64,000 bases of DNA from Leucoraja ocellata. Lineage: Eukaryota. The DNA lies in contig JAWMAR010000105.1 in NCBI GenBank assembly GCA_036785375.1, positions 1,798,001-1,862,000 on the forward strand, written 5' to 3'. The notes below the pieces were generated by a model. The model was not told where the DNA came from and searched no databases. It saw only the letters and a list, made by a program, of their open reading frames with translations. Below, piece by piece: positions 8,663 through 61,522 of this stretch. The position numbers and the translations under genes are program-made. Numbering within the stretch: position 1 is the stretch's first letter; each line of letters opens with the position of its first letter.

Positions 8663-8858
8663 AATCACTTGAATAGACACAGAGTACTGGAGTAACTAAG
8701 CGGGTCAGGCAGCATCTCTGGAGAAAAAGGATGGGTAATTACCCTTTTGGACCGGAACTCTTCTTTAAACAGTGTGACCCGCTGAGTTACTCCAGCACTT
8801 TGTGTATATCATCGGTATAAACCAGCACCCACAGTTCTTTCCTACAGAAAATCACTTG
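8663..8858. mobile_element. Fold-back PLE-terminus element with TSD
   Basis: Antisense arm from 8674 then sense arm plus tail to ~8846; AATCACTTG repeated at 8663-8671 and 8850-8858. Confidence 0.7.
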
Positions 8859-8863
8859 GATGT

Positions 8864-9415
8864 CATAGAAACATAGAAAATTAGGTGCAGGAGTAGGCCA
8901 TTCGGCTTTTTCGAGCCTGCACCGCCATTCAATATGATCATGGTTGATCATCCAACTCTGTATCCTGTACCTGCCTTCTCTCCATACCCTCTGATCCCTT
9001 TAGCCACAAGGGCCACATCTAACTCCCTCTTAAATATAGCCAATGAACTGGCCTCAACTACCTTCTGTGGCAGAAAGTTCCAGAGATTCACCAATCTCTG
9101 TGTGAAAAATGCTTTTTTAATCTCAGTCCCAAAGGATTTCCCCTTTATCCTTAAACTGTGACCCCTTGTCCTGGACTTCCCCAACGTCGGGAACAATCTT
9201 CCTGCATCTAGCCTGTCCAACCCCTTAAGAATGTTGTAAGTTTCTATAAGATCCCCCCCCCCCCTCTCAATCTCCTAAATTCTAGCGAGTACAAGCCAAG
9301 TCTATCCAGTCTTTCTTCATATGAAAGTCCTGACATCCCAGGAATCAGTCTGGTGAACCTTCTCTGTACTCCCTCTATGGCAAGAATGTATTTCCTCAGA
9401 TTTGGAGACCAAAAC
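8864..9415 (-). mobile_element. CR1 (HER-type) LINE 3' end
   Basis: ORF 8948..9220(-) RTRGHSLRIKG...FFTQRLVNLWNFLPQKVVEASSLAIFKRELD; (TTTCTATG)n tail. Confidence 0.9.
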
Positions 9416-9823
9416 TACAATGTCTGATGCATATTTTTCGAAACATCGTTTAATTGCATGGTAAAGCGCAAATTCTAAATCTCTTGTTAATCAGCCTTTT
9501 AGTTAATTTGCTATGAAGTGGGAAATGATGCCTTGTTCTAATGACTCTTGAACACCCATTGATAACTTGTAAAGTTCCCTGCTAAGTGAGTAGAATGCCA
9601 TATGTACATTTGTTTGAAAGCTACGTGAAAAAAAAAAAATTGTGTGAGTATCAACATGGAAATTATTTTTCTTACTTGATGTTGATGTAACTTGAATAAA
9701 GTTAATCTTTCAGTTGGACACTGGCGGTTATGCATTCCACTTGAGATGTTGGGGTGCTTTTCATGTGTATGAATAGCCATTGCAAGTAGCAGTTTTGCAA
9801 ATACAATGTGCTTATTGCAAAAG

Positions 9824-9915
9824 ATAGACACAAGAAGCTGGAGTAACTCAGTGGGTCAGCATTTCTCTTGAGAAAAGCAATGGATGATGTTTCAGTTCAG
9901 GACCCAACTTCGGAC
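9824..9915 (-). mobile_element. PLE-terminus fragment, degenerate hammerhead
   Basis: ATAGACACAAGAAGCTGGAGTAACTCAG...GATGTTTCAGTTCAGGACCC. Confidence 0.65.
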
Positions 9916-10657
9916 CCTGAATGCAAACCAGTTTTCCTTGAATGCAAGTTTTGGCAAGTTTTTAATTTGCAACTAATTTGCATCAGTTTTAATAGGCCAA
10001 TCTCTTTTTAGAACTGAACTATCTGAGTTCATTTCTACAAATGTAGGTTTGATTAACTTCAGGCTTGTAAATCAAATTGGAGGCGTTGGCATTGGCATCA
10101 AAAACTTCTTGGTGAGATGAGAGAACTTGTTGGTGGCAGTGTGGAGAATAATGGAAACTTTGAATGTTAGTAAAGTGTGGTTAGTTCATTAATCAGTTCA
10201 TTTCTGTATGCTCTCAGCTGGTAACAGCAAAACGCCATCTAACGATGAGAATTACCTAACAACATTGGGTTTTTTGAAGTAAAAACTTCACTCACAACCA
10301 AATACTTGTATGTTTTTGCTTGGTACAACTTTCAGGGAGGTAGAAATAATAATTACTGGAACAGGAACCCAATGAGCAGTTCTTATTCCAAAAGAAAATT
10401 GGGAAGGAAATCTTGTTTCCAGATTTAGTTTTGGGACAATAAGACCATGTCCACAAATTAGCAAGTTTTCAGAAGTCACACTGACCATTCATTGTGTAGG
10501 CCACATCTATACAATAACAAAAAAAAGGGCATGTTACCACTTGAAATATCGAGGATGAAGTAATTTGGCATAGCTTTTTAAAAACAAACCAAAGCTATTT
10601 TGGCCTTGGATACTATGTACTGTTCACTATGTGGGGACAGAAGACCTGGCATTATTA

Positions 10658-10999
10658 AAGCCCTGTCCCACGGTACGAGTTCATTCAAAGAGCTCTCCCG
10701 AGTTTGCCCTGATTCGAACTCGGAGATTTACGGTAATGGCCACTTGTCGGTACTCGGGGCTCTCGTGGACGTTTTTCAACATGTTTAAAACTCTTCACGA
10801 GTCTTCCTGTGCTTATCTGCCGTCAGCAAGTCTTCCCGAGTACCTGCCGTTAGCGTAACGAACCGCTAAGAGACGTCCCCGAGCTCTGACGTACCCGCTA
10901 CGTTCATTCTCCGTGCATACCACAAGTTTGGGGTTTTTTGGGGGGTTTTTTAAACTCGGGAGAGCTCTTGGAATGAACTCGTACCATGGGACAGGGCTT
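10658..10999. mobile_element. PIF/Harbinger-like MITE
   Basis: 48-bp TIRs (10658-10705 / 10952-10999, 2 mismatches) flanked by a TTA/TTA 3-bp TSD; CpG-rich interior. Confidence 0.85.
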
Positions 11000-12088
11000 T
11001 TAGTTTATCTTTTTGGTTACCTTGCATATTTGGTCAATTAGATTGACTTGCATGACAATTTTCACCCACGCGCACCAAAAAAAGGCGGCTGTCTTGATTT
11101 TGGGGGAGAGGAGGGAATTAATTGTAAAGTCATGGCTGATTTTGGTCCACAAAGCAAGCAAATCATTCGCTAAAGTTTAGAAGTATAAGTGGCAAGGTTG
11201 TCCTTGGTATCCATAAGTTTCTTTTACATGTTTACATTATTTTTTCTTCTGAGACCTTGATGGAGAGAGAAGGGAATGGAATGGAAAAGAAACAAGTCTA
11301 TAACAATGCTAAGCAGAACATACTGCACTTGCATAGTAAGTTGATTAGTACATGTGGAGGGACAATATTTTGCAACCGAAGCTGTTTTTAATTTATTTGG
11401 GGGCAACACCAGGTGATCAGGTTTATAATGTGCAACCTTGTATTAAATACAGCAAAAGGCAGTTTGTATCGCACACAAGCTGTTAACAACAATGCAATCT
11501 TTGTGGTTGCAGAGCCAGCACCAGGTTTCAGTACAAAGTTGACCATTGGAAACAACTAGTTAAAGTACTTAGAATTTTTTTTTTTCCACTTGTCCTATCC
11601 AATATAATTAACACAAACAGGTTAATGTTCCTTTCTATTTTAGGTATCTGAATATGCCTTCCATCAATATTTGTTTTCCTTGAGTAAGTGGATTCCCAGT
11701 CTGTATGTTTTAATATTTATTATGGTTGCTGTGTAACTCCTACAGTTGGGAGTTACCTTGCTGCTTTTCTAATGGACATAATGTCCCATTTTTTTTGTGG
11801 AAGAATTCTTGCTCTGTTGCCAGTGGTCAAACCACATTCCAACAATATACTTTTTGACTTGGTTGATAACACACTTTGATGGCGTTCATCTACTCTCCTG
11901 GAGATAATGCGAGGCTAAAATATTAGTGCAGTGATGTAGTGTTGCAATGTAGTAGGCCCTAACCTTTGGGTGAGATGTTAAAGTGCAATATGTAGATATA
12001 AGATCCCTCGGCACTGCTCTGTAGAGAAGGTCTCCCCCGTCGTCTCCCCAAATCTTGATTAACATGGGTGACCTACTTATTATTCCAA

Positions 12089-12487
12089 GGTAGATAAAAA
12101 TGCTGGACAAACTCAGCGGGTGAGGCAGCATCTATGGAGTGAAGGAAAAGGTGACGTTTTGGGTCGAGACCTTTCTTCAGACTGATGGGGGCAGGAAGAA
12201 GAAAGGAAGAGGCAGAGACAGTGGCCGCTGGGGGATCTGGAAGGGGGGGAGAAAGCAAGGACAACCTGAAATTGCAGAAGTCAATGTTCATACCACTGAG
12301 GTGTAAACTACCCAAGCAAAATTTGAGGTGCTGCTCCTCCAATTTACGTTGGGACTCACTCTGGCCATGGAGGAGGCCCAGGACAGAAAGGTCCGATTCG
12401 GAATGGTGCTGAGTTGGTCCAAGTTGAAGTGCTGAGCCACTGGGAGATCAGGTTGGTTATTGCGAACTGAGCGAAGGTGTTGGGCGA
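12089..12487 (-). mobile_element. Penelope-like element 3' portion: GIY-YIG C-terminus plus terminal repeat with hammerhead motif
   Basis: QHLRSVRNNQPDLPVAQHFN and EEQHLKFCLGSLHLSGMNIDFCNFR followed on the same strand by CTGAAGA-AAGGTCTCGACCC-AAAAC-GTC. Confidence 0.85.
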
Positions 12488-15180
12488 TTTGGGGAAAATC
12501 AAGATTTAACAAATTTTCAGACGTGCCTTGCCTGTTTTAAGATTTTGTTTCCAGTCATGGAGTTTTCATGTATTGGTTTCTAGCTAACTCAGAGTTGCAG
12601 AATCTCCTCAAGCATAAGGTTACAAGGAACTAATGGAAGCGATCTTTGAATATCCCTCCCAAAATAAATGCCTACAAGATTCTGAAAGACATTGAACAAA
12701 TCCACTTCTGGATCCCATTTTATCCCCACTAAGATCCAATGGCTATTTTGACTATCTGCTTGGTGATCATTTCCTGTTAAATATCACAATGGCAGTTTGT
12801 TTTTTGCTGTTTTAGAAATGTCGTAACTATTTAAATGTCACCGGTACATGATGTCCAGAGATCGTGAATGATAACTCTGACCCCAAGGTATGCACAGTTC
12901 TGTTTATCATGCACGTGCTTCACTTTAAAAAAATCCTCGTTTAACAGGTCTAATTCTGAATTGGCTTGCACACTGTTTCATCACTACAGGCAGGCAAACT
13001 GTTAAGGTGTATATTGATTAAGAAGATGCAAAACTTAATCTGCACTTGTTCTCTCCAATACACTTCCAGCAAAAGGCTCAGTAATTAGGTGATTTAATTC
13101 AAAACTCCTAAATTGAAAATGCAGATGTCACCTGTACAGAGCTGGGGTGAGCTACTGACCTTTTAGTGGACAGCAATTTAAATGTTTTATTAACTGTCAT
13201 GCTTAATTTTTCACTTGGTATGATAGCTTTAAATTGGATCTCCTTAGTACTTATTCTGGCCCCCTTAATAATTCTGAAATTTAATAATTCTGCCATTGGT
13301 TGTTGCATCTTTAACTGCCAGGGCTCTAAGCTCTGAAATTCTCTCTATCATGATCCACTCCTCTTATAGTATTCAATCTTTAGGTCACCTGCCACAACAT
13401 TTCCTGTTGATTCAGTGTTCACACTGTTGAGAAAGGCCTTGACGCTTTCTATATTAAGTGCACAGCATTGTACGTTGTTGGAATTGTAACCAAGCTACAC
13501 CATATGGTCATTTATTACCCACATTTCGACTAAAGTTTCTGCATTAACTATTCCCTTTTCCTGCATGTGATTCGACTTGTCTTCAGGGACTGTCCAATTG
13601 ACCAATTATTTCTGCCTGTTCTAGTCACACAGGACAAGTTTCTCATCCCTCTTTCTCCCAAGTCCTTCCAACTATGAATGCCATCCTAATTTGTACCTGT
13701 AAATGTGCCTTCATTTCCAAAAAAAACAATTATACATGTCATCCAGTTTGTAATTTAAAAAAGCACATGGCTACTGCTGGTTTGACCGATAAAGGCAGAT
13801 TATAGATTACCGAATGGAGAATTTGTGTTGAGATTTGATCTATATAGGCAATTTTAAATGTGGGCAATAGAGATGGGTGAGAGGGTCTTTTACCAAATGT
13901 AGAGGGTGTAAAATAGGATTAGGGGACAGAGTACAGTGGATGCATTGAAATTAACGGCAGCACCACTATAATGCTGCCAAAACTAAATTGAGTTGGAGGA
14001 TGAGAGGAAGGAATGACTCTCAAATTTGTATTCTGTTTAGACTTTTGCTTAAGATTGTAATTTGATGCTAAGTTTGCTTTGTGCTAACATTGACCTCTTA
14101 CTCAATTTTCATCTCTTTCTTAAAGATGTCAATGTAGGATTTTCTATTTTTAACCAGTGACTGCTCCCTGTCTTTGGAACAAAGAAAGCGTCACTTTTAA
14201 TTTGCTTGTGACATCAAGTGATTTGGAAGAATATTTTTAGGTGGGGTCTAAACCAGCGAGTCAAATTGTCATCGACTCCGACTGACTTTTGTATTGGATA
14301 TGACTGTCTTTACTGACTCATTCCTCAGGCAGTAATCTGTGTATTCTACTGAGCATTCTACTACGTCACAGTTTTTACAGTGTACCTGTTTTGTTAGCAA
14401 TGACGGAGTTACACAAGGGTGTGGTGTGCTCTTAATTGTAGTTGGCAAAGCAATGTTTGTTTCTGACTCGACATTGCACAATGCATTGTTACAGAAATAG
14501 TTTATCTAAAAGTTACTGCTGTGTACCTTGTGTTTGGTAACGGAAGTTCCAGAAATTCTTGTGTCAGGTGTGTGCGTAAGAAGGGAGGGTCATCACGTTG
14601 TGAGACTAAAAAGTATTTGGGAAGAACATTAGCTGAATCGAGGCAAATGTGTCATCTAAATATCAGTGCATACATCTTTGTAATCTACGCAACGTTTCCT
14701 GTCACTTGTCTTGCCAGTGGGCTTCATCAAGGTCACCAGAGGCCAGCAATTCCCTGAGAATTATCTCCCTCTTGCAGGTCTAGTGTCCACACCTACGGGC
14801 TGTGGTGTGGTCACGTGTTGAGCCGGACATCGCGGGCCTCTTGCCTTGCCCAATCCCATTTGTTGGAATGGGGTTGCTGACCATGAGTACCAGGGTTTAT
14901 TTCTCTTAATTACAGAAACATTCTAAGAAGGTTCAAAGGTGTCAAGGTTGCGGTCTCGGGTCACTGCTTGGGGGCATGCTCTGCTTTAATGAGATAATTC
15001 TCTGGCATGGTATTAGCTCAATTGGCCCTTTAAGTGGACATTCAGATTGGGTAGCTGGCTCGATCTTGTGTGGTCCACTCCAGTGTAAAAGGCAAAGCTT
15101 TCATTGCCTGATTAAATGGAGAGGACACAAAGCCTATTTCTGCCTAGCCATATTATTGCACCTGACCAACCTTTAGTTGC

Positions 15181-15436
15181 AGTGCTGGAGTAACATGGTG
15201 GGTCGGGCAGCATCTCTGGAGATAAAGGACTGGTGAAGTTTCTGGTTCAGACCCTTCTTCAGACTTATTATTCACCAGGTGGCTCTTGACAACCTAACTG
15301 CTAAAATCATAAGTCTGAAGAAGAGTCCCGACCCAAAACGTCACCTATTCCTTTTCTTCAGAATGCTGTCTGACTCGCTGAGCTACTCCAGCTTTTTGTC
15401 GATCTTTGGTTTAAATCAGCATCTGCAGTTCCTCTC
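15181..15436. mobile_element. Fold-back PLE-terminus element with 46-bp captured spacer
   Basis: Antisense arm 15181-15264, spacer 15265-15310, sense arm plus tail 15311-15436. Confidence 0.8.
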
Positions 15437-16394
15437 GACTCTTATGCTATGTGCCACCCGACTCTGGAATTACTGAATGAAAATCTAGATATATGCTTTC
15501 TCCTTGGATTTGAGAGATGTGTGGAGAAGCTGCCATACAATTTATTTTTAATGTTGTAGTTTTCAAACTGCAGATTCATTCTGAAGATTTCTGGTTTACT
15601 CCCAAAGTAATCCACCTACAGCTGGATGCTAGAAATTTGCTGGGCAGCTAATAACTAACCACAGGCTGGGCATTTTCAATAGCATTTGGTGTTTGGATAA
15701 TGCAAAGTAATTTGATCCATCCATCAAAATATTTTTTTTTGCAGGGTGAATGATATTGGAAGCCATTATCACCATTTCCTACAGGTTTGGATGTTTTGAA
15801 TGCTCTCAGGGGCTCAGTTATTAGACTAAAGTGCAAGCATTAGACTAGACTAATTTAATAATCCAGACTCTGTGCAAAGCATGACTTTAGCAGCGAGGTT
15901 GTCAAGAGTCACCAAATGAATAATAAGAGCTCTGGGCCCAGACAAGCAAAGTTGTATATTTCAGTCAGGCCATCAGTACTTGAAGTCTTGTGGGGTGGTA
16001 TTCAGATTTGAATGTACATAACCATAATGCAGCCCCTCATGGGTTTGGTACTGATGTAATCCTAGCACTTTGCTGTAGACAAATGTTTAAAGCTTGACTG
16101 GAGTTGGCGAGGAATTAAAAACCAAATACATAAATCAAAGATGACGTTGGCAAGGCGGACGGATGGTGGTCAGAATGGGTTTTGAAGAGGATTTGGGGCT
16201 TGGGGAGAACTTCAAGGTTTTGAAGGTGAAGCTGGCTGTTGTGGGGGAAAAGGTAGCTAGTCGTGGGTAGAGTGGTTAAGTTACTGTGCTGGCAGCTGGA
16301 ATCTGGACCTCCCTCCAGAGACACTGGATTGATTTTCAAGATGGATGGTGCAGAATGTTTAAATAATTCAAAAATCTTTAACTAACTATGAATA

Positions 16395-16508
16395 CAAACA
16401 ATACAATAATACTTTATTAGCCAAGTATGTTTTGCAACATACAAGGAATTTAATTTGCTAAGTCAGTCATACAAATAAAAAGCAACGGAACACACAAAAT
16501 ACATTTTA
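16395..16508 (-). mobile_element. LINE 3'-tail remnant (Rex/L2-like)
   Basis: Short-repeat tail (AATAC)n then TTTATT...CATACAAGGAATTT. Confidence 0.45.
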
Positions 16509-18208
16509 CAGACACCACTGGCTCTCTAATGTACATCAGGAAAGAAACTATCGATCTTTACCAGTTTGGCCTGTGTGACTAACTAACTAGGATCTATACA
16601 AGGATACTGCTTGCAAGAGACAACTTGTGTGGAGAGAGCAATTGAACTGACCCTGGTCATTGTACTATAGTGTCTGACAAAATGTATGTAGGCAGTCCAA
16701 ATTAAATGTGGGTTGTTAGAACTTTGAGACAGCAGCCTTAAAATATTTACAATAAATTATTTTTGATCTTGTTACTATGAAATGATCATGGCATAAAGAT
16801 TGTATTGCTGTATTTAGAATTCAAATAGGTACTTTGTTTGATATTGGTGCAAGTGACATAAAATATGTTAAATACTAGAACTTTATCAAATGTCATAGAC
16901 ATGGAGTGCTTGTTAAGCTTTTACTTGGTTAATGCAATTAAAATGTTGCTACTTAACATAGTAAAAGAGGATAATGTGCAGGTGTAATGTTTTCAACATT
17001 TGGTTAGTTTAATATCAGGACATGATATAATTGACATTTTATAAAAGGCTTCATTTTTATACTGCCTACAAACTGCTCAGCATATATGTGATGTATCTAT
17101 TACAATTGTAAATGATCTTTCAACTTGATGACAATTCAATTAGATTGTCTATTTTTTCCAGCCAGTATAGTATTGTGATACTTTTTCCTGAGTACTGACT
17201 TGGGTTATAAAGGCACCCTGACTCAACTTGCAATATCCAGCTTCAACTGGTCTTTCGTTTGGCGTGCACAGCCTAAAGTTGTAGGACAACTTGTTCTATT
17301 TGGTCTTATTTGATTGTGCACATCAGGTTGATTGCATTTGTTGAAACAGGGCAGACCATGTGAAGGTTGCAATCTCCCACCCCAAGCTTCATCTGGTGGA
17401 CAGCTGTTTCCCAGCTCTGAAGTATCTGCCTGGTGTCCTTTTGATGTTGGCTCCAACTACTGAATGGTCTGGTTAATGGGTGAAGACAAGGAGTGCAGCC
17501 CAGTGCCAGATTTCTGGCAGACAAGCTGCATTGCACTATGTGATCTGGAAAAAATGCTCTTGAACCCTTGTTGATGGACACCTTACTTTATTGTGAAGAT
17601 TAATTTCCTTGCAGATATTTGAAATTCTCTCTCGGTGCCCGTGACATTTGGGTCGGTTTAAATCCCGTGCTGCAATGTACTATTCTCAAATAAATTGCTT
17701 CAATTTAAAATGTTTATTGCAGACAGACCAAAATAACAAAATGTGGAAGATGCTTTATTGGTTTATAGTACTGGTAGAATATAATCTACAATACATAAGC
17801 ATCCCTTCTATTACATTAGTATTGTTTCCATATTCAGCAACTGAGACCATACAAGTTGTTGAGAAGATAATGATCAAAGTTTAGGAGCCGATCTGGCTGG
17901 ATTGAAGTTGTGAAGCTGTGTGCTTGAATCTAGTTCCAGCAAAGACAATTGTGAAAAACTTGGTGACAGCAGATGAGTTAAGACACATGCAGATTGAGTT
18001 GCCTTTCTTGAACGTGAATACCTCGCATTCCTTTGGTGCTCTGCTTCTGGACAGTTGCCATAACAAGTTTTACAATTTGTTATTTGTGGAATCAATCTGG
18101 GCGACTTTATATCGCCTCAGTTGAATCCCACCTACACTCGACTGAAGCCCTTTTTGTCTCTTTCCCTAACCTTTTGTCCCATCCACACCTTAAGATACAA
18201 CATTGCAC

Positions 18209-18822
18209 AAAGGTTCAAAGGGCTTTTATTGTCACGTGTACCAATTAAGGTGCAGTGATATTCGATTTGCCATACTAAAAAAAAGCAACAAGACGCACAA
18301 CTACATAACAGTTAACATAAACATCCACCACAGTCAAACCATCCGTAGTCAGAGCGATCTAAGCTCCTGAAGTCAGGACGATCGAATCCCCCGTGTCGCG
18401 GCGATTGAAGCTCCCGCTTCAGGTCGGTCGAAGCTCTTGCGGCTTGGAGCTTCTGAAGTCGGTCTCTAACCAGAGACCGCGAGCTCCACGATTTTAAAGT
18501 CCGCAGCCTCCAAGGTCGATCCATGACGGGGACTTCCAGCTCCATGATGTTAAGTCAGCAGGCTCTCGCGGTTGGAGCTCCCGAAGTCGGTCTCCAGCAG
18601 AGGCCGTCAGCTGCTCGATGTTAGGCTGTAGAGCGGACGGAGATACGATATGGAGGTAAGAGATTTAAAAACAAGTTTTCTCCCCCCCCCCCCCCTCCCC
18701 CCCCCCCCCCACACACATATAAAACGAACACTAAAGCATAAATTTAACACATACTATAAAACAACAAAGAAGGGATGGATGAGTCGGACTGTTGGCGATG
18801 CAGCCATTGCTGGTGCCACCCA
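18209..18822 (-). mobile_element. Unclassified retroposon with LINE-like 3' tail and GC-rich internal repeats
   Basis: TTTATTGTCACGTGTACC tail shared with 36474; two ~70-bp CpG-rich units containing GGAGCTYCYGAAGTCGGTCTC. Confidence 0.5.
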
Positions 18823-20029
18823 ATGAGTATTCAGGTAAAGGGTATTTTTGTACCCGCCACCATTCAGGTAAAGAGTATTTTTGTAACTTCCGGCTAACTT
18901 GCTTCTACCGTACTTGTCTCTTGCCTCCCAATCAAATGCCAACCCATATCACAAGCTAATTATTTTTGGGAGGCCTCTAAGTTTTAATCATCTGGTGTGA
19001 ATCCTCTAAGTAATTTCCATAACCCTCAATAAAAACATCCTAAGATGCTATCTTAACATTCATCACTGACGTTCTGATGTGGATTAGTTGGGTATGCCTT
19101 TAAACATCTTAATTTTTCTCAGCTTACTTATTCAGGTTCTCAATCAGAATTCCAGCAACTTTTCTACAATTAGGCAGACAAGCCTAGTTTCATTCTTCCC
19201 TCTTAGTGCAATCATCTTGCACTCCTGAAAAATGGATACAAACTACAAATTGAATAGATCTGCTGCTTTTCTTTCGAGCTGGTTCAGCTTGCACGTGCGG
19301 TCTAATAATATCTTGGATTTTTTTTATAATTTATCCATTGGTTTTCCCCTTGTTTTACTGCGAGCTGCCTTCATATGATACAATTCCTGTCTCATTTTCT
19401 TCATGGGTATTGCCTACCGCACACCATAGATTATTTAAAATGATTTATGCACTTAATTATTTGGGTTACTTTCTCTATTCAGCCAGGTTTGCTGTGGATA
19501 ATTAATTTCTCATTCTTTTAAGTCTGTCTTACTTAGCATTGGCACTGTTTCTGTGCTACTCCCTCGCATACTTGGTGTTGGGTTCATAATCACTAAAAGG
19601 GCAAAGGTAAAGCCATGGTATGTAGTAGACTTTGTGACAGGTTTAAAGTTATGATCACAGTTGAGGAAGTCTAATTTCAGTTGATTACTAAATCCAATTA
19701 CATCTTGGGCCATTATTGATAATGCAAACAAACATGCAATATTCTACATATTTATTGGCATTGCAGCTCCAAACTATTCTGTTCCTCTCAGTAAAAATAT
19801 CCCTGAACTCTCCATTACACCCTGCTTATTTCCTTGTTTGCCCTAACCCTGTTATCAAGACTGTTAACAATTCCTTTGCCCTGCGCACTTTCTCCCCGTT
19901 TCCAGTGCCTCGCCACTCGTGTTTATCTCCTGCAATTACATCTTTTTGTCATGTTACAGGAGAAAGATATATTCCTCCCCCTCCTCACTTCGTATCATCT
20001 AATTAAAAACACTGCAGCCTGCGAGTGCA

Positions 20030-20295
20030 TCTGCCTCAGAGCGGCAGAGACATGAGGTCAATCTTAACCACTGGTGCTGTCATTGTTGTGTTTTCAGGTT
20101 CTCGCTGTGACTGAGAGCGTCCTCTCACATCTCAATGACATGTGATTTTGCAGGTTAATTGACCTTTACCAATTTCCCCTGGTGTGCAGGGAGTCGATAA
20201 GCAAGTTGTGTAATATAGAACTAGAACAAATGGGTGATAAATCTTTGGCATGGATTCAGTGGGCCGAATGTCCTTTTTTTTTTGCATTTCTCTAT
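20030..20295 (+). mobile_element. V-SINE-like SINE, degenerate
   Basis: GGTCAATCTT B-box remnant, GCAGGTTAATTGACC and GTGGGCCGAA 3' motifs. Confidence 0.55.
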
Positions 20296-23216: not shown

Positions 23217-23232
23217 AAAAGAGAAGAGCTAA

Positions 23233-25228: not shown

Positions 25229-25232
25229 GGTT

Positions 25233-50681: not shown

Positions 50682-50789
50682 ACAGGATTGTAATCATGTG
50701 TATAGTCTTTCTACTGAATGGATAGCACGCAACAAAAAGCTCTTCACTGTACCTCGGTACATGTGCAAATAAACTAAATTAAAACTGAA
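50682..50789 (+). mobile_element. Rex/Babar-like 3' tail
   Basis: Reverse complement of 36460-36560 (TGGATAGCACGCAACAAAAAGC...TTCACTGTACCTCGGTACA...AATAAACTAAA). Confidence 0.7.
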
Positions 50790-51092
50790 GTGCTGACGGG
50801 CACAGTGAAGACTACTTGTTATTTCTGTGGTATTAATTTTTTTAATTCTGTACAGCCATGAACTGAAACCACAATCATTCTGCATGATCTCCCACCTTCA
50901 TTCAATGAAACTCCTGTGTTACTCATTGACATGCTTACGTAACCTGATCTGACTGTTTTTGCACTATAAAAAGAGCATTGTACTCGCTGCCAGATATGTT
51001 GAAATGTTTGCACCTAACTATTTCTAAGTTGTTTTGAGTGTATCACTCTTAGTAATCCAATGGAGTATTAGCCTATAAAATAACACCTATTG

Positions 51093-52002
51093 GTCTATGG
51101 ATGATAGTTGTGCAGGAAGGAACTGCAGATGCTGGTTTATACCGACGATAGATGCAAAATGCTGGAGTAACTCAGCTGATCAGGCAGCATCACTGGAGAG
51201 AAGGAATGTGTGATGTTTCTGGTCGAGACCCTTCTTCGGAATCTGAAGTCTGCATGTCTTTCAGAGTCTAGAACAGGGGTGGGGAACCTTTTCATGTTGG
51301 AATGCCGCATTAAGCTAGCTGTAATCTAATAAGCCCGCAGCCAAGAAACTTAAATTAGATATACTTCAAAATGTACATTATTTGGTAAACAAATCTAACT
51401 ACTATGTAGTAACTTCAAGAAAATGAAAAAAAATTGTTAATTCTAAAGTTAATTAACCTTTTAATGACTTTGTTGTGACTGCTCTTTGTGGGAAAACATT
51501 TGAATATTTGGTTGCAACATGGAGGTACGCAGTTTCAGCTGATCTTCTAGATGAGTATCTGTCATTTGTGACCTTAAGGGCGGCCTGATTTGGGTTGGGT
51601 AGGAGAATGTAGATTTGCAGCAATAAGCGGTTGAAAAGCAAGAAAGCATTTTCCGTGCATGTCAAAGTTAACGTACATTCTAGAGTGAGCATAACAGGTG
51701 TTAAAATAGCCCTCATGACTTACTAATGTTTGAATTAGTTGAATCTTCTTTTACGATTAAAATAAAAAATAATAAAAGATGAACAAAAACATATTAATAA
51801 AAATAAAAGGATTTGTTCCACAAAATTTGGATTCCTTCAAAAGGCCGCACTTAATGGCCTAGAAGGCCGCAGGCTCCCCACCCCTGGTCTAGAGTCTGAT
51901 GAAGGGTCTCAACCCAAAATGTCACCCATTCCTTCTATCCAGGGATGCTGCCTGTCCTACCTACTGAGTTACTCCAGCATTTTGTGTCTATGGATAATAG
52001 TT
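51093..52002. mobile_element. Fold-back PLE-terminus element with 17-bp TSD, split by a nested hAT
   Basis: GTCTATGGATRATAGTT at 51093-51109 and 51986-52002; arms 51110-51239 and 51893-51990. Confidence 0.85.
51274..51886. mobile_element. Non-autonomous hAT (Charlie-like) DNA transposon, 613 bp
   Basis: TIRs CAGGGGTGGGGAACCT / AGGCTCCCCACCCCTG; 8-bp TSD GTCTAGAA/GTCTAGAG fits the NTCTAGAN Charlie target. Confidence 0.9.
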
Positions 52003-53460
52003 TCTGTGTGGATACTTTCACCCCTTTTATTTAAGGGACTAACTGCTGCTGGAGTACTGCAATAATTTGTGATATTCAACATGGAACAATATCAAATTTG
52101 GGTAATGAGTCGGTACCAACTATAAACCATCCATCCATTCCAAACCCTTGCCTGTTCAGCCCCATTTCTATCCACTTCTCCTGCCCTCATGCTTGATGTG
52201 GTGGAATATAGTGGTAACTCCAAACACCAACTCCCAGACCATACAAGGTCGTGGTGGACGGTGTGTTGGATCTGAGGATCTTTTACCATCCTAAATACCA
52301 GAGGATGGGGCTTGTTTGACTGCAGTCGCTATGGGGTGACTGGAAGATGCACTGCTGCCCGAACAGAGGGATAACACCACAGCTTGATAACGGGGCCCAA
52401 TCAGTTAGGATCAATTCGGGATGGGCAATTGGAGTACCATGCAAGATTTGTGCCAATGTAAAATAGAGATTCCAGTTATATAGATGTTTTCATCATGGTG
52501 CAAATAAGGGAGGAGCTGAAAGTGAGGGATAAAGCCTGATGGGTATTTTTGTGCTTGAATGGGATTTGAATTTTCTAACCTGAGCAAATTGAGTCTCAAC
52601 TGACCAAGAAATGAAAAATTATTGAAATGATACATTTTTATGCAGCATTAAATTTTCAATGCTGAATAGAAAGTGTTTAATTTTGCACATGTATATTCCA
52701 GATTAATGACAACACACTTCCACTCAAGGGTCTCAATTTTCAACCACTCTGTTGGTAATTTTGTAATCCAAGAAAATTGTTTTCTCTTCCAATGATGGGA
52801 GGAAAGAAAAATGAGCGTATTGTGGTTGCCTTTAACTAGATGTTTTAATATGAAATACATGGAACCTGTTGTTTTTCCTGTCCTGCAGTGTAGTCAGTCA
52901 GAAGGGCCATGATGTGATGACTGAATAAAAGCTGCTCTAAAGAGATTCATTGCGATTTAAATCGTCTCTTGCAGTGCTGTCAATAAATAATATCCTATTA
53001 TGTCATCAATGAACTGCAGCATGGGAAGAGGTCACTTTGTGCATTTCAAGTACTAAATCTGATGTAACATGAATTTTAATTTTTTACTATGATGTTGAAA
53101 AGCTACTTTATGAAATGTTACTAATCGCATCTGAGAGTAATGTTAGATCTAAATGCATGCTTCAGTCAGCTGAGCAGTTCAAATTCTGGAATTTACAGCA
53201 GCAGTAGACAGTTTAATGATATGAACAGAAATCAAATGACATTTATCTTCCCCTCAAATTGTCAGCTATTGCTTTAGCAAATCAGACCATAAAATAATTC
53301 AGCCATGTTCTTTAGTGGTCTGGCAGAGTATTAGTTGCAACAATTATCTGACACTCAAATTAACAACGTTATCAACAACTTCAACCATTTCAAGAATTTT
53401 TAGCCGAAGGATCTGAAACATAATGGGTGGTTTTGCACCGGGATAGACTGGCTGTCGGGC

Positions 53461-53669
53461 ACCAGTTGAAGTGTACACAAAAAAGCTGGAGAAACTCAGC
53501 GGGTGCAGCAGCATCTATGGAGCGAAGGAAATAGGCAATGTTTCGGCCCGAAACGTTGCCTATTTCCTTCGCTCCATAGATGCTGCTGCACCCGCTGAGT
53601 TTCTCCAGCTTTTTTGTGTACCTTCGATTTTCCAGCATCTGCAGTTCCTTCTTAACCAGTTGAAGTGTA
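53461..53669. mobile_element. Young fold-back PLE-terminus element (149-bp palindrome, 15-bp TSD)
   Basis: Arms 53473-53546 / 53548-53621 with one mismatch; perfect TSD ACCAGTTGAAGTGTA at 53461-53475 and 53655-53669. Confidence 0.92.
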
Positions 53670-54454
53670 ATTGATTGTGAGATGAGGTACTGAAGAGGGA
53701 AGGAGCAGTGACTGTAGTGATCCCAAACGCAGTATATTTCTTAAATACCTCAATCTGATTTTAATGTGCAATCTAAATTTTGCTTGCTTGCATTAGAGAG
53801 CTCTTCCTCTAATTAAAGTAGTACTATGGCTGTGTGTATTTGGGGGTAGTTGGAAGAGGGGTGAGAAGAGAATGTAACTGGACCTAAAACTTGGGCATTT
53901 ATGTGTCCTTTATACAAATGTTTTCCATGAAGATGTGACCATCCCTAGGTATTTTCCAGTGTATTTTGGATGGTAGTGTATCCTGCAATATTGTATTCAT
54001 TTTATTGAGAACAAATATTTCTGACTCTCCTGGAATCTAAATTGAACATAAAAGAAAGATTTGGAAGATGAATCTGTCTTTTGCTCCCTCGGTATTACAA
54101 TTCTCTATGGGTTTTACCAAGATAAGTGATTCTCTCCTTTTGATCATTCAATATATCTAAACTCGACAAAATGAACTTAATGCAATGCCAAATTTAAACT
54201 TCACGCTAAGCTAATACTTTAAGTTCTTAATATAAACCCAACAAACAACCCTACTACAACCAAATCTCTGCCACATTCTGGCTAGGTTTTAAGGAGAGTT
54301 CTAACACCAGCTAAATCTGGTGGAAATATTTATTCTCTCCGATTAGGACGTGAGATAAGTGCTGAATGCTTTTGATTTGATTTGATTTCCTTTTTAAATG
54401 AAAAGCTCAAATGTTACTTCAGAAATCTAACCAAACATTTGCATCTTTCTGCAG

Positions 54455-55302
54455 CTGAAGGTGACTGCGGGGCGTTTGGAACCAATTCTCTCCTACGCAA
54501 GAAGAAAGGTCTCCATGTGCTGCGGCCTGTCTATCACAAGTCAAAGCCTCACATCTTGATTGGAATGCCGCAGGATTTCCGACAGATCTCTTCCATTATT
54601 GACGTGGACATCCTTCCAGAAACTCACCGCAGGGTCCGTCTTCACAAACACGGCTCTGACAAACCACTTGGATTCTACATTCGCGACGGGGTGAGTGTAC
54701 GGGTGGCCCCTCAAGGAGTGGAAAAGGTTCCAGGTATCTTCATCTCCAGGCTTGTCCGAGGTGGCTTGGCGGAGAGCACTGGCCTGCTTGCGGTGAACGA
54801 TGAAATACTCGAGGTCAACGGGATTGACGTCGCCGAGAAGTCACTGGACCAAGTGACCGACATGATGGTAGCGAACAGTCATAATCTGATCATTACCGTG
54901 AAGCCAGCAAATCAACGCAATAATGTCATTCGCAGCAGCAGGGCCTCTGGCAGTTCTGGTGTTTCCACGGACAGCAGTCCAAGCCAGCACAATGTCATAG
55001 CTACTTCACACTATGCCAACCACTACAGTGCAGCTGAAGGAGAGAGTGAAGACGAAGGCGATCTAATAATTGAAAACGACATGCCATCATACATTCCAAA
55101 AACAATGTTCCCAAACTATGTGAATGGAGATCTTACAAAAAAGCTGCAGCATAACCTCTCCCTAAACAGCCCACTGTTAGACAGCAAAGAAAACAAATAT
55201 AAAGGGTCCTTAAACTCTTTGAACATACATAGTGACAGTCCCAGCAAAATAAGTTCAGGCCATGGAAACATGCGAGAAGATGGAACAATGATAACACTAT
55301 AG
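54455..55302 (+). CDS. pard6a: Par-6 coding exon 3 (semi-CRIB, PDZ, C-terminal tail)
   Basis: TCTTTCTGCAG acceptor in phase 1 matching exon 2; [44 protein letters not shown]...[21 protein letters not shown]; LHKHGSD, VAPQG and LVRGG are PARD6A-type. Confidence 0.96.
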
Positions 55303-57750
55303 ACAATTTTCCTTTATAATCACTTTTATATAACATTTCCAAGTCCTTTGTGGTTAAACCTGACTTAAGCCTTGTTAAGGAGGTTGGAATCCAATCAATT
55401 TTTACAAGAATATTTGACGCCGATGGTGAATCTGGAGGTTAGAAGTATTTATGAAAGAAAAATCGTAATCGCTTTTATGAAGGATCTTTGACGAAGAATT
55501 GTGCGTATTCGCATCATGTTTCATTTTCGATGGCAATTAAATGTCCAAGATTCTGTTTAGAAGCCAACCTCTCGAACTGCTTCCTGTTTAATAAAACTGG
55601 AATGCATCATATTATGGAGCAGCATTTGAGCAGATGTTACCTGCAATTGGAGACAAATGTATCTTGTGAAATTGCAATACAAGCGTTTTTAAAAATGCGG
55701 GTTCACTATCTTCATATCATGGAACCTGTGCATTTGCATCAGTGACCTCATTGTTACAAATGTAAACTTACAAACTACTTATTCAGCATTATTTGCATTT
55801 ATCCAATTTGAGAGCAGGTGTCCCCTTTTTCCTATGGAAAACAATTATGAAACTGATTAAACGTGGACAGGATCTTCAGTGGAGCATAAACCTTTCGTGA
55901 AGTAGCTGCTCTGCTCCCTAAAAGGATATTTGAGAGCTTTGCAATTTTAAACTTGTGGATTTCCTGCTGTAAGGCAGATTCTTCCTTGGTGGTATGAGGG
56001 TTTCCTGTATTGTATTTTTTTAACCTACCTGTATCTTAAATTTTAAGAAACCCTGCTGGCTTCAGTACCTTTTAAAACCATGCTGCTTGACATATTCTTT
56101 CTGTATTGCACACATTTTGTACTTTCCTCTCCTTAAACAGAGCACTGTTCGACACTGAGATAAGTAACCATCAATAATACTCCAACTACTGTGTACATTA
56201 AATGACAAAGAGCACTTTTTAAATTGGAATACTTTCAGAAAAAGATCAGTGTAGTTACGTCCAAGGATAATTTTTCTCTACAGCGTACCATAAATTAATT
56301 AATAATAAAGCTTCTGATTTTTAATCTTTCATTAAATGGATATTCTCACTGACAAACCTAGGGCACACAAGGCAACATTGTCATCTAAAGAGCTTCACAA
56401 TGTCTGTATTTGGGGTTTAAATTCTATGGAAACACTTGGGAATGAATTTGAAGACATTTCACTTTTTATCCACATAAATATCGTGACAATTTTGTTGTTG
56501 AGGTTTTGGGGTAGTCTAAACTTGACAAACATGTTGGTAATTAGAAGATAGGCACAAAGTGCTGGAGTAACTCAACGGGTCAGGCAGCATCTCTGGAGGA
56601 AAAAGGATGCATAATGTTTTGGAAATCTGCAGAAGGGTCCCAACCAGAAACGTCACCCGTCCTTTTTCTCCAGAGATGCTGCCTGATCCGTTGAGTTATT
56701 CCAGCACTTTGTGTCTATCTTTGGTATGAACCAGCATTTGCAGTTCTTTTCTACACAGGTTGGTAGTTTAGTATCGGCACGTTCATTTCCAGCAGAACTG
56801 GATGCACTTTGTTAGAGTATAATTGTGCAACTTTACTAATCATTTAAAAATAGTAGAAAATTAAGTATGAGCTCCTTGTATGGACCCTGTAGGTGATCTT
56901 GGTAACCTGGAGCCTTTAACAATTAAAATGGAGAGCACATTGTCAAGACACAGCAATTAATTTTAGTCTTGTCCACCCTGTCAGTTTCGAGGCCTAATCC
57001 ATTACTTTAAACCTAGAGTCTGATCATTGTTGACTGCTGGATTCCCAACAATAATCAAAATGTACCTCTCTGCACACTTAAAGTATTAAGCACAATGACT
57101 GCAGTTTTCATAAGCTTCCTGTAGAATGAGCAGCTTTTATTTTCCATCAAAATAAAACTGGGATTGCCAAAATCTTTAATATAACATTTCCTCTACTTAG
57201 TAGTTCTTAAGTGAGGATGAAAACCACTATGGAAATGCTTCCGGTAATTGTAAATTGTCATCATTTAAATGTTATAGGGCTATAGCAGTCAACCATAGTT
57301 GTAGGCAAAATGTGATTGATTTTTATTTTTTGGATCATTTTTTGTAATTATTTCTGCTGCACATCACTACATTTAAAGGTTTTTCTTTGTGGTAGTTCTG
57401 AGCCAGCAGGGTTCCATGGTGGGGTGTGACTTTGCTGAATTTCTTTTAGAACATGTACGTATTTTTTGATTTGTTATGCATCAAATCTGTTTAGTAAAGA
57501 GATGAGAGCAATTTTATCTAACTGGGGATATTTTGTAATTTTTTAATGAAATGAGGGCAGTATTTTTCTTACTTTTTTGTATTTGACCCCACTCAATCCT
57601 TGGTCTCTATTTGACTTCCCATAACCTATACTACCTTGTATTTATCTTATTTAACAGATGAGCAATCGTGAAGATTGAGATTGCAGAACATTGTGAATGT
57701 TCCATAGATGTACGTTGATTATTCAAATAAAAGTTCTAACATGCACCAAA
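55303..57750 (+). other. Probable pard6a 3' UTR with alternative poly(A) signals
   Basis: AATAAA at 55590, 56304, 57151 and 57726; U-rich 3'UTR-like sequence at 57300-57660; true end unknown. Confidence 0.45.
56545..56756. mobile_element. Fold-back PLE-terminus element downstream of the stop codon
   Basis: ~65-bp inverted arms 56545-56609 / 56658-56721; approximate TSD ACATGTTGGTAATT / ACAGGTTGGTAGTT. Confidence 0.85.
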
Positions 57751-57930
57751 ATGTGTTTAACATCTTTATAACTTGTAGTATCTGTGATGGACTAAAAAAA
57801 TCCAGTGAACTTCACAGAATGACATATGGAGTGTTACTGAGCTCAGAACATGGCTGGAAAATTAGGTTTGAAGACTGGCGACCAATGGAGAATTAAAGGA
57901 TTTTCGGGTTGAAGTTCCAAAGAGTATCTA

Positions 57931-57997
57931 AGATGCATGGACCATTACAGTTCCCAGATGCATGGACCATTACAGTTCCCAGATGCTTGGACCATTA
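57931..57997 (+). repeat. Tandem repeat, 25-bp unit x2.7
   Basis: AGATGCATGGACCATTACAGTTCCC repeated. Confidence 0.9.
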
Positions 57998-58149
57998 TCT
58001 TATTAATAAAATGAAGGGTATGCATTTGATTTAAGAGACTGGAATGTTTGCAGTACTAAAAGTTGAACCCATTGATTTAAAGATGGGATGAAAGCTTTAA
58101 ATTGGAGGCATTCAGTGCTGGGGAACTACTACCCAGCAAGGACCAATGG

Positions 58150-58330
58150 GGCTCCTCGTGGTGCAGCAGTCCAACTTTCTAACAACATTGATTTTGAACT
58201 CTGCTCTCTGTCTGGAGTTTGCATGATCTCCCCTGATTGCAAACGTTTCCCTCAATTGCTTAGTGGTTTCTCTGACACCCCAAAGACATGCTAGTTGGCA
58301 GATTCATTAGCTGCTGTAGATTACAATTAT
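58150..58330 (+). mobile_element. Degenerate V-SINE
   Basis: GTGGTGCAGCAGT head; CTGTCTGGAGTTTGCATGATCTCCC...CCCAAAGACATGC. Confidence 0.6.
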
Positions 58331-58444
58331 AACTTTTCCTCGTGGTTCGTGATGAATGGGTGGATGAGTGGTGGAAGAAACTTGTTAGTTGGTGGTGGCC
58401 AATTGTGAGAGAATATTTTACAAGGGATTGCCCTGAGAACCAAC

Positions 58445-58528
58445 TTAGACTCTGAGTCAATTGGTTCTCTGAGTTGTGACTGAGTTGTGACTCAGTTTGA
58501 CTGAGATTAGACTCTGAGTCAATTGGTT
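58445..58528. repeat. Short direct-repeat cluster rich in TGASTCA (AP-1) motifs
   Basis: 22-bp direct repeat at 58445-58466 and 58507-58528; TGAGTCA x2, TGACTCA x1. Confidence 0.7.
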
Positions 58529-58667
58529 TAATGTCATGAGGAAGAATGGATAACAAAGACCAATGGAAAATGTGGTACAAGATTTTAGCAGCAAACAAGT
58601 ATTTGGAGAATGGGTTCTGTCAAGCATTCAAGTGGCAAATCTGAACACAACCATTCAAATCGGTGAT

Positions 58668-58757
58668 GGACACAAAGGTGGTGTAAATCAGTGGGTCAGG
58701 CAACATCTCTGGAGAAAAGGAATAGGTGATGTTGCGGGTCGAGACCCTTCAGACTGA
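58668..58757 (-). mobile_element. PLE-terminus fragment, degenerate hammerhead
   Basis: GGACACAAAGG...CATCTCTGGAGAAAAGGAATAGGTGATGTTGCGGGTCGAGACCCTTCAGACTGA. Confidence 0.7.
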
Positions 58758-59859
58758 GAGGCAGAGGACTCGACAGGCTGGTGAGGTAAAAGCACAATGT
58801 TGATGTGAGATATGAATGCCAACTTTAGCTTGGTCAGAATGCTAAACAATCCGCTTTGGTTAGATTGGCACAGCAGCAGAGTAAGCCACTTGGTACATTT
58901 CAATTACCTATCCACTGGAATTGGGAAGAAAGTTGCTACCAATCTAAACCTGACTTCAAAGATCACAGCCAGCAGCAATTAACCAGATTTGATACTGGAC
59001 ATAATCTTGTCAATTGAGCCCAGTTGCCAAGTTATTTGTATGGTTTTTATTCTACAGTGTAATTACTGACCAACCTTTATTTTCATTTGGGGAAGTAAAA
59101 GCAGAATGGGCTAAAATGTGGGGATGGTTGACTAAAACCTGTGTGATTTATTAATTGTTGTGATTCTTTTGCATGGGCAAATGTGGCTTTGTACAGATGG
59201 GAAAAAACAATGATCTCATTGGGGAACTGGACTGGAGCTTAATACATATAACATTTGTTGATCTAGCTCTGCTAAACTGGATAATCCTCCTGACCCAGTT
59301 TGCCCAGTGAATAAATGCTCAGACAAGTTACAGTTTGATTTAAAAGATTAAAATATTGGCAGTCGTTTCATGTTTATGGTGTCTATATACCTTTATCACT
59401 GGCTTCCTTTGCCATCTTTACACCATTCTCTCTGGTGCTGTCATCAATATTTTGCTGCCTGGCAATATTTCCTCTGTTCACTCTGCATTAAGTTTGCAAT
59501 CCCATGATGTTGTAGCTTCACACAACTTGTCTCGCCCTGCTTGGTGTAATACCAATACCACAGCATGTCTTCTATGCATTGATAGTGTCCTTCACTGTTG
59601 GTTCACTGTATCCTGTTGTCTTCACTCTGTGCTATTTGGCATATATTGGACACTTGAAATTAAAAGCTGATGCTGGAGAGACTGTGCATGTCAGCAGTCA
59701 TCTACGGAGGGAAGCTGTTTCAAAGATGCTGTCAATCCTGCTGAGTACTTCCAGCAGCTCTGCTTTTTTTTTTTTGCTGATTGATTGTTGGAAGTTTAGA
59801 CTCTGAGGTATGTCTTTTTCTATGCCAACATCAGCAGTTCCTTGTTTCTACCTAGTCCC

Positions 59860-60420
59860 GGAGTAACTCGGCTGGGTCATGGATAGGTGACGTTTTGTGT
59901 CTGGGGTAGAGGCAGGCAGAAGTACTGGATGAGGAGGGGGCAGGACAAAGCCTGGCAAGGTGGATGTAGGTGAGAGGGTTTTTATTGATGGGCAGATGGT
60001 TGGACAAAGACCAGAGATGAATAGACAAAGGATGTGAGGCAAGGATAGAAGAGATGAGAATTGTGAAGCCAGTGGTAAGAATTAAGATGGGAGGGGAGAA
60101 ATGGGTGTGAGTACAGGTGGGGGAAGGGGGGGGGGGGGGGGAGGTTTGATTAGTTTCCTGAAATTGAATAATTCAATGGGTTTTTTGGGGGGGCTGTAAG
60201 CTTCCCAGCTTACAACAAAGTTCTGATCCTTCAGTCTGCATGTGGTCTCACTCTGGCAACGTAAGAGGTCAGGGACAGAGGGGTCAATATGGAAATGAGG
60301 GGACAATTACAATGGTTAGCCTGCGGGAGATCCAGAAGGTGGACCGAGCACAAGTGTTCGGTGAAACAGTTGCTGAGTCTACTCTTTGTCTCGTCGATAT
60401 AAAGGAGGTCACATCGAGAT
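59860..60420 (-). mobile_element. Penelope-like element 3' part (inverted copy)
   Basis: Minus strand encodes LLYIDETKSRL (YIG half-motif) and the C-terminal IELFNFR block, then UTR and terminus. Confidence 0.75.
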
Positions 60421-60429
60421 CAGTCAGAC

Positions 60430-61522
60430 ACCTCCTTATACTTACCCCTTGAGCCCACAGAGGGGTATGTGACATCCAGCACATTCTGGCATTTCTGCCA
60501 TCGCCATGTGATCCCACCACCAGTCATATCTTCCCATATCCACCACTTTCTGCCTTCCAGAGACTGCTTCTACAACTCCTATGTCGACTAATCCCAACCA
60601 ATCCTTCCCGAGGTTTTTTCCCAGGAGATATAAGACCTGTACCTATACCTCCATCCTTGCAGCTATCCAGGGACCTCAACAGTCCTTCCAGGTGAGACAA
60701 AGGTTCATGTGCACCTCTCAGCTCATCTACTATGTACAGTGTTGCTGGTGTCTCCTTTACATCAGTGAGACTTGGACATCTTTTAGCCAAGCACTCTTAC
60801 TCGGTCTGCTGGACATCCCAGTTGCTAGCCATTTTAATTCCTTTCCCATTCTCATAATGGCCTTTCTATCTTGGGCCACATGCAAATTGGAGGAACAACA
60901 CCTCATATTACACGAGGGCAGTGACAACCCAATGATATGAACATTGAATTCTCCAATTTTTGGTAACTTACCAAAACCCCTTCCACCTACATTCCTTCCT
61001 CTGGCTTCACAATTTGAAATTCTTCTATCCATATCTCACACCATTTTGTCTTTCATCTGGGAGCTTTATCCAAACATCTGCCTTTTAACCCCTCCCCAAC
61101 CCCCCTCATCTGCATCCATCTATCACTTCCCAGGATAGACAAAAAAAAAATGCTGGAGTAACTCAGTGGGACAGGCAGCATCTCTGGAGAGAAAGAATGG
61201 GTGACGGTTCGGGTTGAGACCCCTCTTCAGACTGATCAGAAGGGTCTCGACCCGATGTCACCCATTCTCTCCAGAAATTCTACCTGTCCTGAGTTACTCC
61301 AGCATTTTGTGTCTATCTTCGATTTAAACCAGCATCTGCAGTTCCTTCCCACACATACTATCACTTACCAGGCATAGTCCTGCCCCTCCTCTCTTCTAGC
61401 TTTCTGCCCACCCACCCAAATGCAATCCATCTGATTAAGGGACACAACACAAAATTCCACCTATCCGTGTTCTTCAGCAATGCTGCCAGATCCACTGAGT
61501 TACTCCAGCAATTTATCTTTTC
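60430..61522 (+). mobile_element. Penelope-like element 3' part with decayed GIY-YIG endonuclease
   Basis: FQVRQRFMCTSQLIYYVQCCWCLLYISET...PVASHFN...CKLEEQHLI, then UTR and a degenerate terminus at ~61430-61520. Confidence 0.85.
61120..61372. mobile_element. Fold-back PLE-terminus element nested in a Penelope UTR, 15-bp TSD
   Basis: CTATCACTTMCCAGG at 61120-61134 and 61358-61372; inverted arms centred at ~61235. Confidence 0.85.

Follow-up and report, generated by a model that had tools for sequence, protein, structure and literature searches.

Short palindromic insertions of a putative Neptune-type Penelope-like element in Leucoraja ocellata and how their inverted arms may arise

Insertions of endonuclease-bearing (EN+) Penelope-like elements (PLEs) have been described for Pen2a_Av and its relatives (PMC3846280; PMC8557442, Fig. 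2). An inverted 5′-truncated copy abuts the 5′ end of the element, a tail of 30-40 bp is carried at one end (an optional 31-bp tail in PMC3846280), the target-site duplications (TSDs) are short (8-10 bp), and palindromes are seen at the 5′ end of the pseudo-long terminal repeat (pLTR) along with partial tandems. This inverted-pLTR, tail and TSD architecture is already published (PMC3846280, PMC8557442); in PMC8557442 it is given as typical of PLEs, with its origin unresolved. In the present study, the same features were found in very short insertions in a 64-kb stretch of Leucoraja ocellata DNA (contig JAWMAR010000105.1 of assembly GCA_036785375.1, forward strand, position 1 being position 1,798,001 of the contig), referred to as the window, and in a genome-wide sample. 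Unlike the Pen2a_Av type, most insertions here consist of two terminal modules only (150-260 bp), their number extrapolates to ~240,000, the TSD mode is 14-15 bp and the pairing of a tail-bearing with a tail-less arm is nearly strict (59/64).

Biochemical data are available for Poseidon PAc of the green anole (PMC11167929). The PAc protein cuts and extends both strands in vitro, two internal start sites of the reverse transcriptase (RT) bound the tail, a dimer is predicted, and ribozyme mutants insert normally, so that insertion is independent of cleavage. As in the Leucoraja element, the hammerhead lies ~70-100 nt upstream of the two tail-bounding start sites. PAc belongs to the Penelope/Poseidon clade and has its start codon in stem II, whereas the element described here has a Neptune/Nematis-type linker and an ATG at module position 172. 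In the main text of PMC11167929, dual priming is not put forward as the origin of the inverted structure. The comparison literature also includes PMC2377424, PMC6765202 and PMC5753468; in a search that covered few subscription journals, no paper stating dual priming for PLE inversions and no description of such short insertions (stubs) in this lineage was found.

Each arm of a stub is a copy of one module, hammerhead plus tail, from a PLE that appears to be of Neptune type. The stubs are genuine, very abundant insertions of this element and not a new element class. We consider it probable (about 0.76) that the palindromes are the shortest insertions, lacking an open reading frame (ORF), of an endonuclease-bearing PLE, and that they are remade at each site by RT from both nicks.

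Palindromic insertions in the window and in the genome

The module was numbered with the C of the CUGA core strand as position 8. Stem II spans 16-27, cleavage is predicted after position 35, and copies end near 102 (tail-less end) or near 135 (tail end). With a profile built from window and genome copies, 30 module arms were detected in the window; the same profile gave no arms in 600 kb of reversed control sequence. An initial annotation of the window had listed nine inserts of one architecture. Seven of them (8663, 15181, 38029, 48352, 53461, 56545 and 61120) are two-arm 5′-to-5′ palindromes in which the left arm is short and the right arm bears the tail, while 21848 and 51093 proved to be single arms. 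TSDs, claimed for six, were found at five of the nine sites (9-15 bp, one degenerate). Those at 8663, 48352 and 53461 are exact (9, 11 and 15 bp, respectively), and those at 61120 (15 bp, one mismatch) and 56545 (degenerate, 11 bp) are imperfect. None was found at 15181, 21848, 38029 and 51093.

The insertion at 8663..8858 is bounded by its TSD (8663-8671/8850-8858) and consists of a tail-less arm (8673-8736, module 36-99, minus), a 38-nt filler and a tail arm (8775-8846, module 65-136, plus). At 15183..15433, both arms begin at module position 5 and are separated by a 46-nt filler, which holds an inverted 33-nt copy (88%, E 1e-4) of unique DNA ~450 bp off (15881..15913, minus strand). A tail-less arm (9-94) and a tail arm (24-135) make up 38031..38219, and an arm of 24-84 with a tail arm of 13-128 makes up 48352..48573. 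The young insertion at 53461..53669 has an arm complementarity of 99%; its arms, which are without the CUGA core strand, are joined at a recurrent micro-palindrome in stem II. At 56529..56765 the tail-less arm lies at 56544-56607 and the tail arm (7-137) at 56626-56756. The palindrome at 61120..61372 (arms 4-100 and 12-137) interrupts the 3′ untranslated region (UTR) of an older 5′-truncated PLE copy on the plus strand (60510..61526; ORF end 60510-60931, UTR, module 61427-61526). The two single arms are both on the minus strand: a tail-less arm (11-101) with a degraded remnant at 21843..21932, where a palindrome is unconfirmed, and a tail arm (7-137) with a 7-nt inverted stub at 51110..51248. 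The tail arm is on the right, the host sense strand, in all seven two-arm insertions of the window (chance ~0.016), unlike the genome sample, in which the two sides are balanced (28 vs 24).

The genome was sampled as 120 stretches of 10 kb (1.2 Mb) at arbitrary places on the 100 largest contigs. The 621 arms of the sample fell into 434 loci, of which 290 had a single arm, 90 were simple pairs facing outward, 7 were pairs facing inward and 47 were other clusters. In 83 of the 90 outward pairs the junction is 20 nt or less, which extrapolates to ~240,000 tight pairs in 3.44 Gb (bootstrap 181,000-295,000). Each insertion consists of two 5′-truncated module copies joined 5′-to-5′ inside a TSD of 9-18 bp, with one copy ending outward at the tail end (~135) and the other at the tail-less end (~102). 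The 83 tight pairs comprised 59 tail plus tail-less, 2 tail-tail and 3 short-short pairs, and 19 that are unclassifiable because an outer end is damaged; tail was thus paired with tail-less in 59 of the 64 classifiable pairs (p 9e-13). Of 64 eligible pairs, 40 were flanked by a TSD, as were none of 384 shuffled flank-pair controls (score at least 9); all but one of these TSDs were of 9-18 bp, with a mode of 14-15 bp. The view of the initial annotation that insertion is RT-mediated, with TSDs of variable length, is supported. Junction types are nearly all unique, the largest classes having 4, 3 and 2 of the 83 pairs. Copies of the subfamilies are 76% to 95% identical to their own consensus, so the process has been long-running; a single 22-nt motif of the youngest subfamily has 7,003 exact matches in the genome, and 12,372 matches were counted for a further young-subfamily motif.

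Single arms in the sample were unequally distributed between the strands (174 vs 116), and no strand bias was present genome-wide. TSDs were found on 21 of 233 single arms in the old sample and on 10 of 14 resolved ones in young loci; the view that single arms lack TSDs was therefore dropped as an artefact of age and range. Several single arms (L040, L061, L063, L071, L078) lie at the 3′ end of one other repeat with a CTATGT-type tail, which suggests a target preference or a template switch. Some single arms have a short inverted, not direct, flank duplication at the 5′ junction (window 12045-12060/12490-12508; L296).

The initial annotation had placed the module next to GIY-YIG coding remnants and had proposed a PLE origin; both were borne out. 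In the 5′-truncated PLE copy at 12089..12497 (minus strand), a C-terminal GIY-YIG remnant (12268-12491; 78% identity, E 3e-21, tblastn with the young PLE protein as query) is followed by a pyrimidine-rich 3′ UTR and by the module, which stops at the tail-less site. A young autonomous PLE is present in the genome, and the arms continue into its ORF. Its unit is 3,946 bp, and the ORF of 1,221 aa, whose ATG at 172 lies beyond the tail, encodes RT (RVT_1, E 1.6e-6) and a weak GIY-YIG match (E 0.013, below the Pfam cut-off), with the motifs DKG, YIDD and YIGET. At residue 1088 it carries a Cys-rich linker motif, C-x4-C-x2-C. A Cys-rich, Zn-finger-like linker between RT and endonuclease is reported for the Neptune clade and also for the Nematis clade (PMC8557442); by its motifs, the donor would be a Neptune-type PLE.

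Partial tandems of 3,946-bp units, arranged head-to-tail and forming pseudo-LTRs, were also found. One array of 2.7 such units, 100% identical, lies within a single 16-bp TSD (G000:C8:5606139-5616717, L214/L215) and is read as a single event, in which the template would have been multimeric or circular, or the strand transferred repeatedly. Twenty young loci taken in order on contig C1, with one tandem array and one long pair skipped, gave 4 pairs and 16 single arms. A set of 20 young loci fetched around ORF matches included 7 inverted pairs with arms of 0.3-4.7 kb, all seven of tail plus tail-less type with TSDs of 11-15 bp, one having an assembly gap at the junction. Arms of every intermediate length were seen among 30 loci found with the full module, and the insertion build is identical from 150 bp to 7 kb. 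Since kilobase-long young insertions share the same build, the short palindromes are truncated PLE insertions; they are the short end of a PLE insertion continuum and not the separate ORF-less retroposon family of the initial annotation. Apart from these, L290/L291 (G000:C9:3394700-3395150) consist of short head-to-tail repeats of positions -24 to 274, in a retrozyme-like layout.

The hammerhead motif and the positions at which arms stop

The exact hammerhead motif of the initial annotation matches nowhere in the window, and the Rfam scan it had named as a check returned no hammerhead family at E<=1, only sub-threshold microRNA and hairpin models. A hammerhead is nevertheless present as a subfamily consensus: the CUGANGA / GAAA / NUH core and stem II are kept across subfamilies, the palindromic ACGU replaces helix III, and helix I has only 2 bp. 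Minimal type I PLE hammerheads have the same core, an unpaired base before stem II and the palindromic ACGU for helix III; the 2-bp helix I is as in D. virilis Penelope, and in Schistosoma opposite-strand hammerhead pairs lie 100-700 bp apart (PMC4209133). Such hammerheads cleave poorly and only as dimers (PMC4209133). The motif here is a predicted hammerhead, and one young subfamily has the cleavage triplet GUU. The active hammerhead fold is not the predicted minimum, and pairing of the tail with the ribozyme strand was no greater than in shuffles (p 0.05-0.76).

In 51 of the 83 pairs the antisense arm lies over the cleavage site, as had been proposed, and the hairpins predicted for the seven window pairs range from -63 to -151 kcal/mol. 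The silencing of the ribozyme proposed along with it is mostly moot, because 30 of the 83 pairs are without a complete core on either arm and all core bases are kept in only 76 of 300 core-spanning arms. In the window, a host-strand arm with a full-length core is present only at 15181 and 56545. RNA reads of a related species contain strand-switch joints within the module. Module positions 28-94 also occur as a 66-bp minisatellite in arrays of 3-5 units (L153:942-1132; L154:15-292 and 2280-2603).

The turning point of the palindromes had been placed always in, or just 5′ of, the hammerhead motif. This does not hold: the tail arm at 8663 starts 30 nt beyond the predicted cleavage site, and of 166 inner ends, 64 are at position 8 or before, 63 at 9-31, 8 at 32-37 and 31 at 38 or later. 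Ends pile up at positions 4-8, ~30 nt upstream of the cleavage site, and breakpoints pile up further at two internal micro-palindromes. TSD-flanked single arms start at 4-8 without extra sequence, and among 16 young arms extending to position 8, 6 stop within 4-8.

The pile-up at 4-8 marks, with about even odds, the 5′ end of a linear PLE transcript. A start of the RNA at this spot is plausible because the positions resemble an initiator motif and because position 6 is the last at which helix I is complementary. The alternative that these ends stem from splicing at the polypyrimidine-CAG that precedes the core is not supported, the UTR being present in all 44 ORF-end-linked copies listed. Apart from PLE UTRs and one repeat class, the DNA upstream of single arms yielded no common exon or host sequence.

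Formation of the inverted arms

On the reading preferred here, the GIY-YIG domain would make a staggered cut, ~14 bp apart. Of the two 3′-OH ends, one would prime at the outer RT start site and one at the inner, and the two complementary DNAs (cDNAs) would stop independently of each other. Microhomology-type repair would then join their ends, which would often anneal at either of two self-complementary spots of the module, with templated filler sometimes added during joining. The hammerhead would simply be carried in the terminal repeat and would not set the ends. In twin-priming inversions of L1, two primers are likewise supplied by both target strands, the cDNAs are joined by microhomology and the TSD is kept; the two parts come from one RNA without overlapping, and priming of the second occurs at a random site. 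Here, unlike in L1, the start sites are two fixed ones, and the stretch copied is the same in both arms. The initial annotation had left the choice between fold-back and twin priming; of the two, twin priming is supported.

Fold-back, in which a single tail-primed cDNA would turn round at an internal micro-palindrome and serve as its own template for the second arm, is unlikely. It would account for several snap-back-like fillers at young junctions and for the junctions that recur at two self-complementary spots. These two junctions, whose self-complementary stretches both have a single mismatch at the centre, were found in two subfamilies; they comprise 6 and 4 of the short pairs listed for these subfamilies and 3 and 4 of the 83 pairs. 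Their TSDs differ, as seen in 20 short pairs picked from the lists, two of which are one duplicated insertion. The earlier claim that each junction differs thus holds for most insertions but not for these. The central base, judged by eye, fits tail-first fold-back at 7 loci and does not at 6 (wrong in 6 of 13 recurrent junctions). Both central bases are as expected if two cDNA ends anneal, since the mismatch would be repaired either way. Fold-back also cannot yield a tail-less arm that reaches further 5′. Of 58 pairs, 20 have a tail-less arm that extends at least 15 nt further and 13 a tail arm that does so, and the tail-less arm is the longer in 4 of the 7 kilobase pairs; as a general route, fold-back is thereby refuted. 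Nor does it explain why copying should end precisely at the inner start site of the RT. The fillers include reiterated pieces of the module, and such fillers are typical of microhomology-type end joining.

Another observation in line with fold-back is that the two arms of a locus resemble each other more closely than they do arms elsewhere. Derived changes outside CpG were shared at 0.0162 per site between same-locus arms and at 0.0053 between different-locus arms (62 loci), a three-fold difference. In six of the seven long pairs the arm-arm difference was below the median difference to other loci; the seventh was without differences either way. Therefore, both arms usually come from one source copy. 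Together with the nearly unique junctions, these shared changes support the earlier proposal that the palindrome is formed at each insertion. In a two-template comparison of the long pairs, only L228 has arms that differ at sites polymorphic elsewhere: of the 15 differences between its 2.9-kb arms, 2 are at sites that vary among other copies, which makes it a candidate two-template insertion.

Several points weigh against priming from both nicks. Its steps are read only from end products, and gene conversion could partly explain the changes shared between arms. The arms copy the same RNA stretch, with an overlap of 2-3.5 kb in long pairs; therefore, two RNAs, a multimer or strand displacement would be needed. 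Single micro-palindrome junctions fit fold-back about half the time. One-arm insertions are common (290 of 434 loci; 16 of 20 young loci), and with a TSD on 10 of 14 young single arms, dual priming is not required for a TSD. The reading of positions 4-8 as an RNA start is itself weak. Among ORF-length copies, 0 of 28 module passes stop at 4-8 (several being units of the same arrays), as compared to the 6 of 16 given above (hypergeometric p ~0.001, by hand). A test for a cap-derived extra G scored 11/26 (p 0.10) and 5/8 (p 0.05), which microhomology would partly explain, and raw RNA reads of a related species show no pile of molecule starts or ends.

A non-autonomous family, with palindromes retroposed as units or stub-bearing host RNAs serving as templates in trans in the manner of short interspersed elements or retrozymes, is marginally less probable than fold-back. 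The extrapolated number of pairs would fit it, as would the module RNA depth in a related species (thousands, vs about 5-20 on the ORF) and the few identical junctions that recur; UTR-less templates would also explain the ends at 4-8, and PLE terminal repeats can mobilise DNA in trans (PMC3846280). However, junction types are nearly all unique, arms resemble the partner at their own locus and not same-side arms elsewhere, sizes are continuous with ORF-bearing pairs, and single arms share no upstream host sequence beyond the UTRs and repeat class mentioned above. Non-LTR retrozymes (bioRxiv 10.64898/2026.07.22.740005; PMC7229834) are likewise ORF-less, hammerhead-bearing, PLE-derived vertebrate repeats, but they are head-to-tail tandems with a hammerhead per unit, whereas the insertions here are single inverted pairs, many without a complete core.

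That the elements are delimited by the ribozyme, as the initial annotation had it, is very improbable; cDNAs would then run off hammerhead-cut RNA, and junctions would lie at the cleavage site. The core motif and stem II are conserved across subfamilies, and two young junctions have an arm ending at ~37 (L315, L316). Against this, 8 ends of single arms and pairs fall at positions 35-38 where 13.5 are expected from flanking positions. With no excess, the cleavage site does not delimit the elements; moreover, most arms retain the whole core upstream of it, and cleavage is dispensable for insertion in vitro (PMC11167929). A miniature inverted-repeat transposable element (MITE) moved by a DNA transposase, to which the short inverted-repeat shape and high copy number would correspond, is refuted by the variable TSDs (9-18 bp), the asymmetric ends, the differing interiors and the continuity of the arm with RT/GIY-YIG coding sequence.

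The difference between short and ORF-length copies at positions 4-8 may reflect two kinds of PLE template, a proposal made tentatively. A capped linear RNA starting at the first helix I base would give run-off cDNAs of 100-135 nt on each of the target strands, and these would become the stubs; a circle made by the ribozyme would give long copies and perfect tandems, such as the 2.7 identical units within one TSD. Just as speculatively, an RT dimer might hold two RNAs, perhaps paired through the palindromic loop of the hammerhead, with one subunit at each start site. If true, the two-template proposal would give the PLE hammerhead a role in vivo and explain the inverted-plus-tail structure in one model.

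Host gene context and significance

A domain scan of the 150 longest of 242 reading frames in the window gave two host-type matches, besides one ALKBH8_N match: a PB1 domain (3083..3505, plus strand, E 1e-13) and a PDZ domain (54376..55299, plus strand, E 2.5e-12). This layout is presumably that of a Par6/PARD6-type gene, with the PB1 frame likely an exon and the PDZ frame likely its final coding exon. Between these two plus-strand frames lie seven of the nine sites, and thus likely inside one 51-kb intron, in agreement with the proposed placement in host pre-mRNA; the 56545 insertion is downstream of the PDZ exon. The profile found further single module arms in 1131..59850, at 1131, 4386, 9816, 25134, 25368, 35011, 36184, 42401, 44438, 51892, 58645 and 59720. 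Unrelated elements at 10657-11000 and 49531-49774, with terminal inverted repeats of 49 and 57 bp, are probably true MITEs. A near-duplicate of the window, with 100% matches, is present on this contig at a distance of ~610 kb (G000:C105:2420169-2470230; L152, L001), likely a haplotype duplicate or a segmental duplication; L325/L326 form a further near-duplicate pair of this kind.

The value of these insertions lies in the statistics of mechanism rather than in the element class, and no host function is shown. The stubs can be mis-annotated as MITEs or as microRNA precursors. They place near-perfect predicted hairpins of 70-120 bp in introns at ~70 per Mb, and may be a large source of double-stranded RNA. 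The origin of the tandem and inverted structures of PLEs is named as an open question in PMC8557442. The data presented here link the two RT start sites known in vitro to the two ends of each insertion, and ~240,000 two-arm insertions together with a young, near-identical family make the origin of PLE structures a counting experiment.

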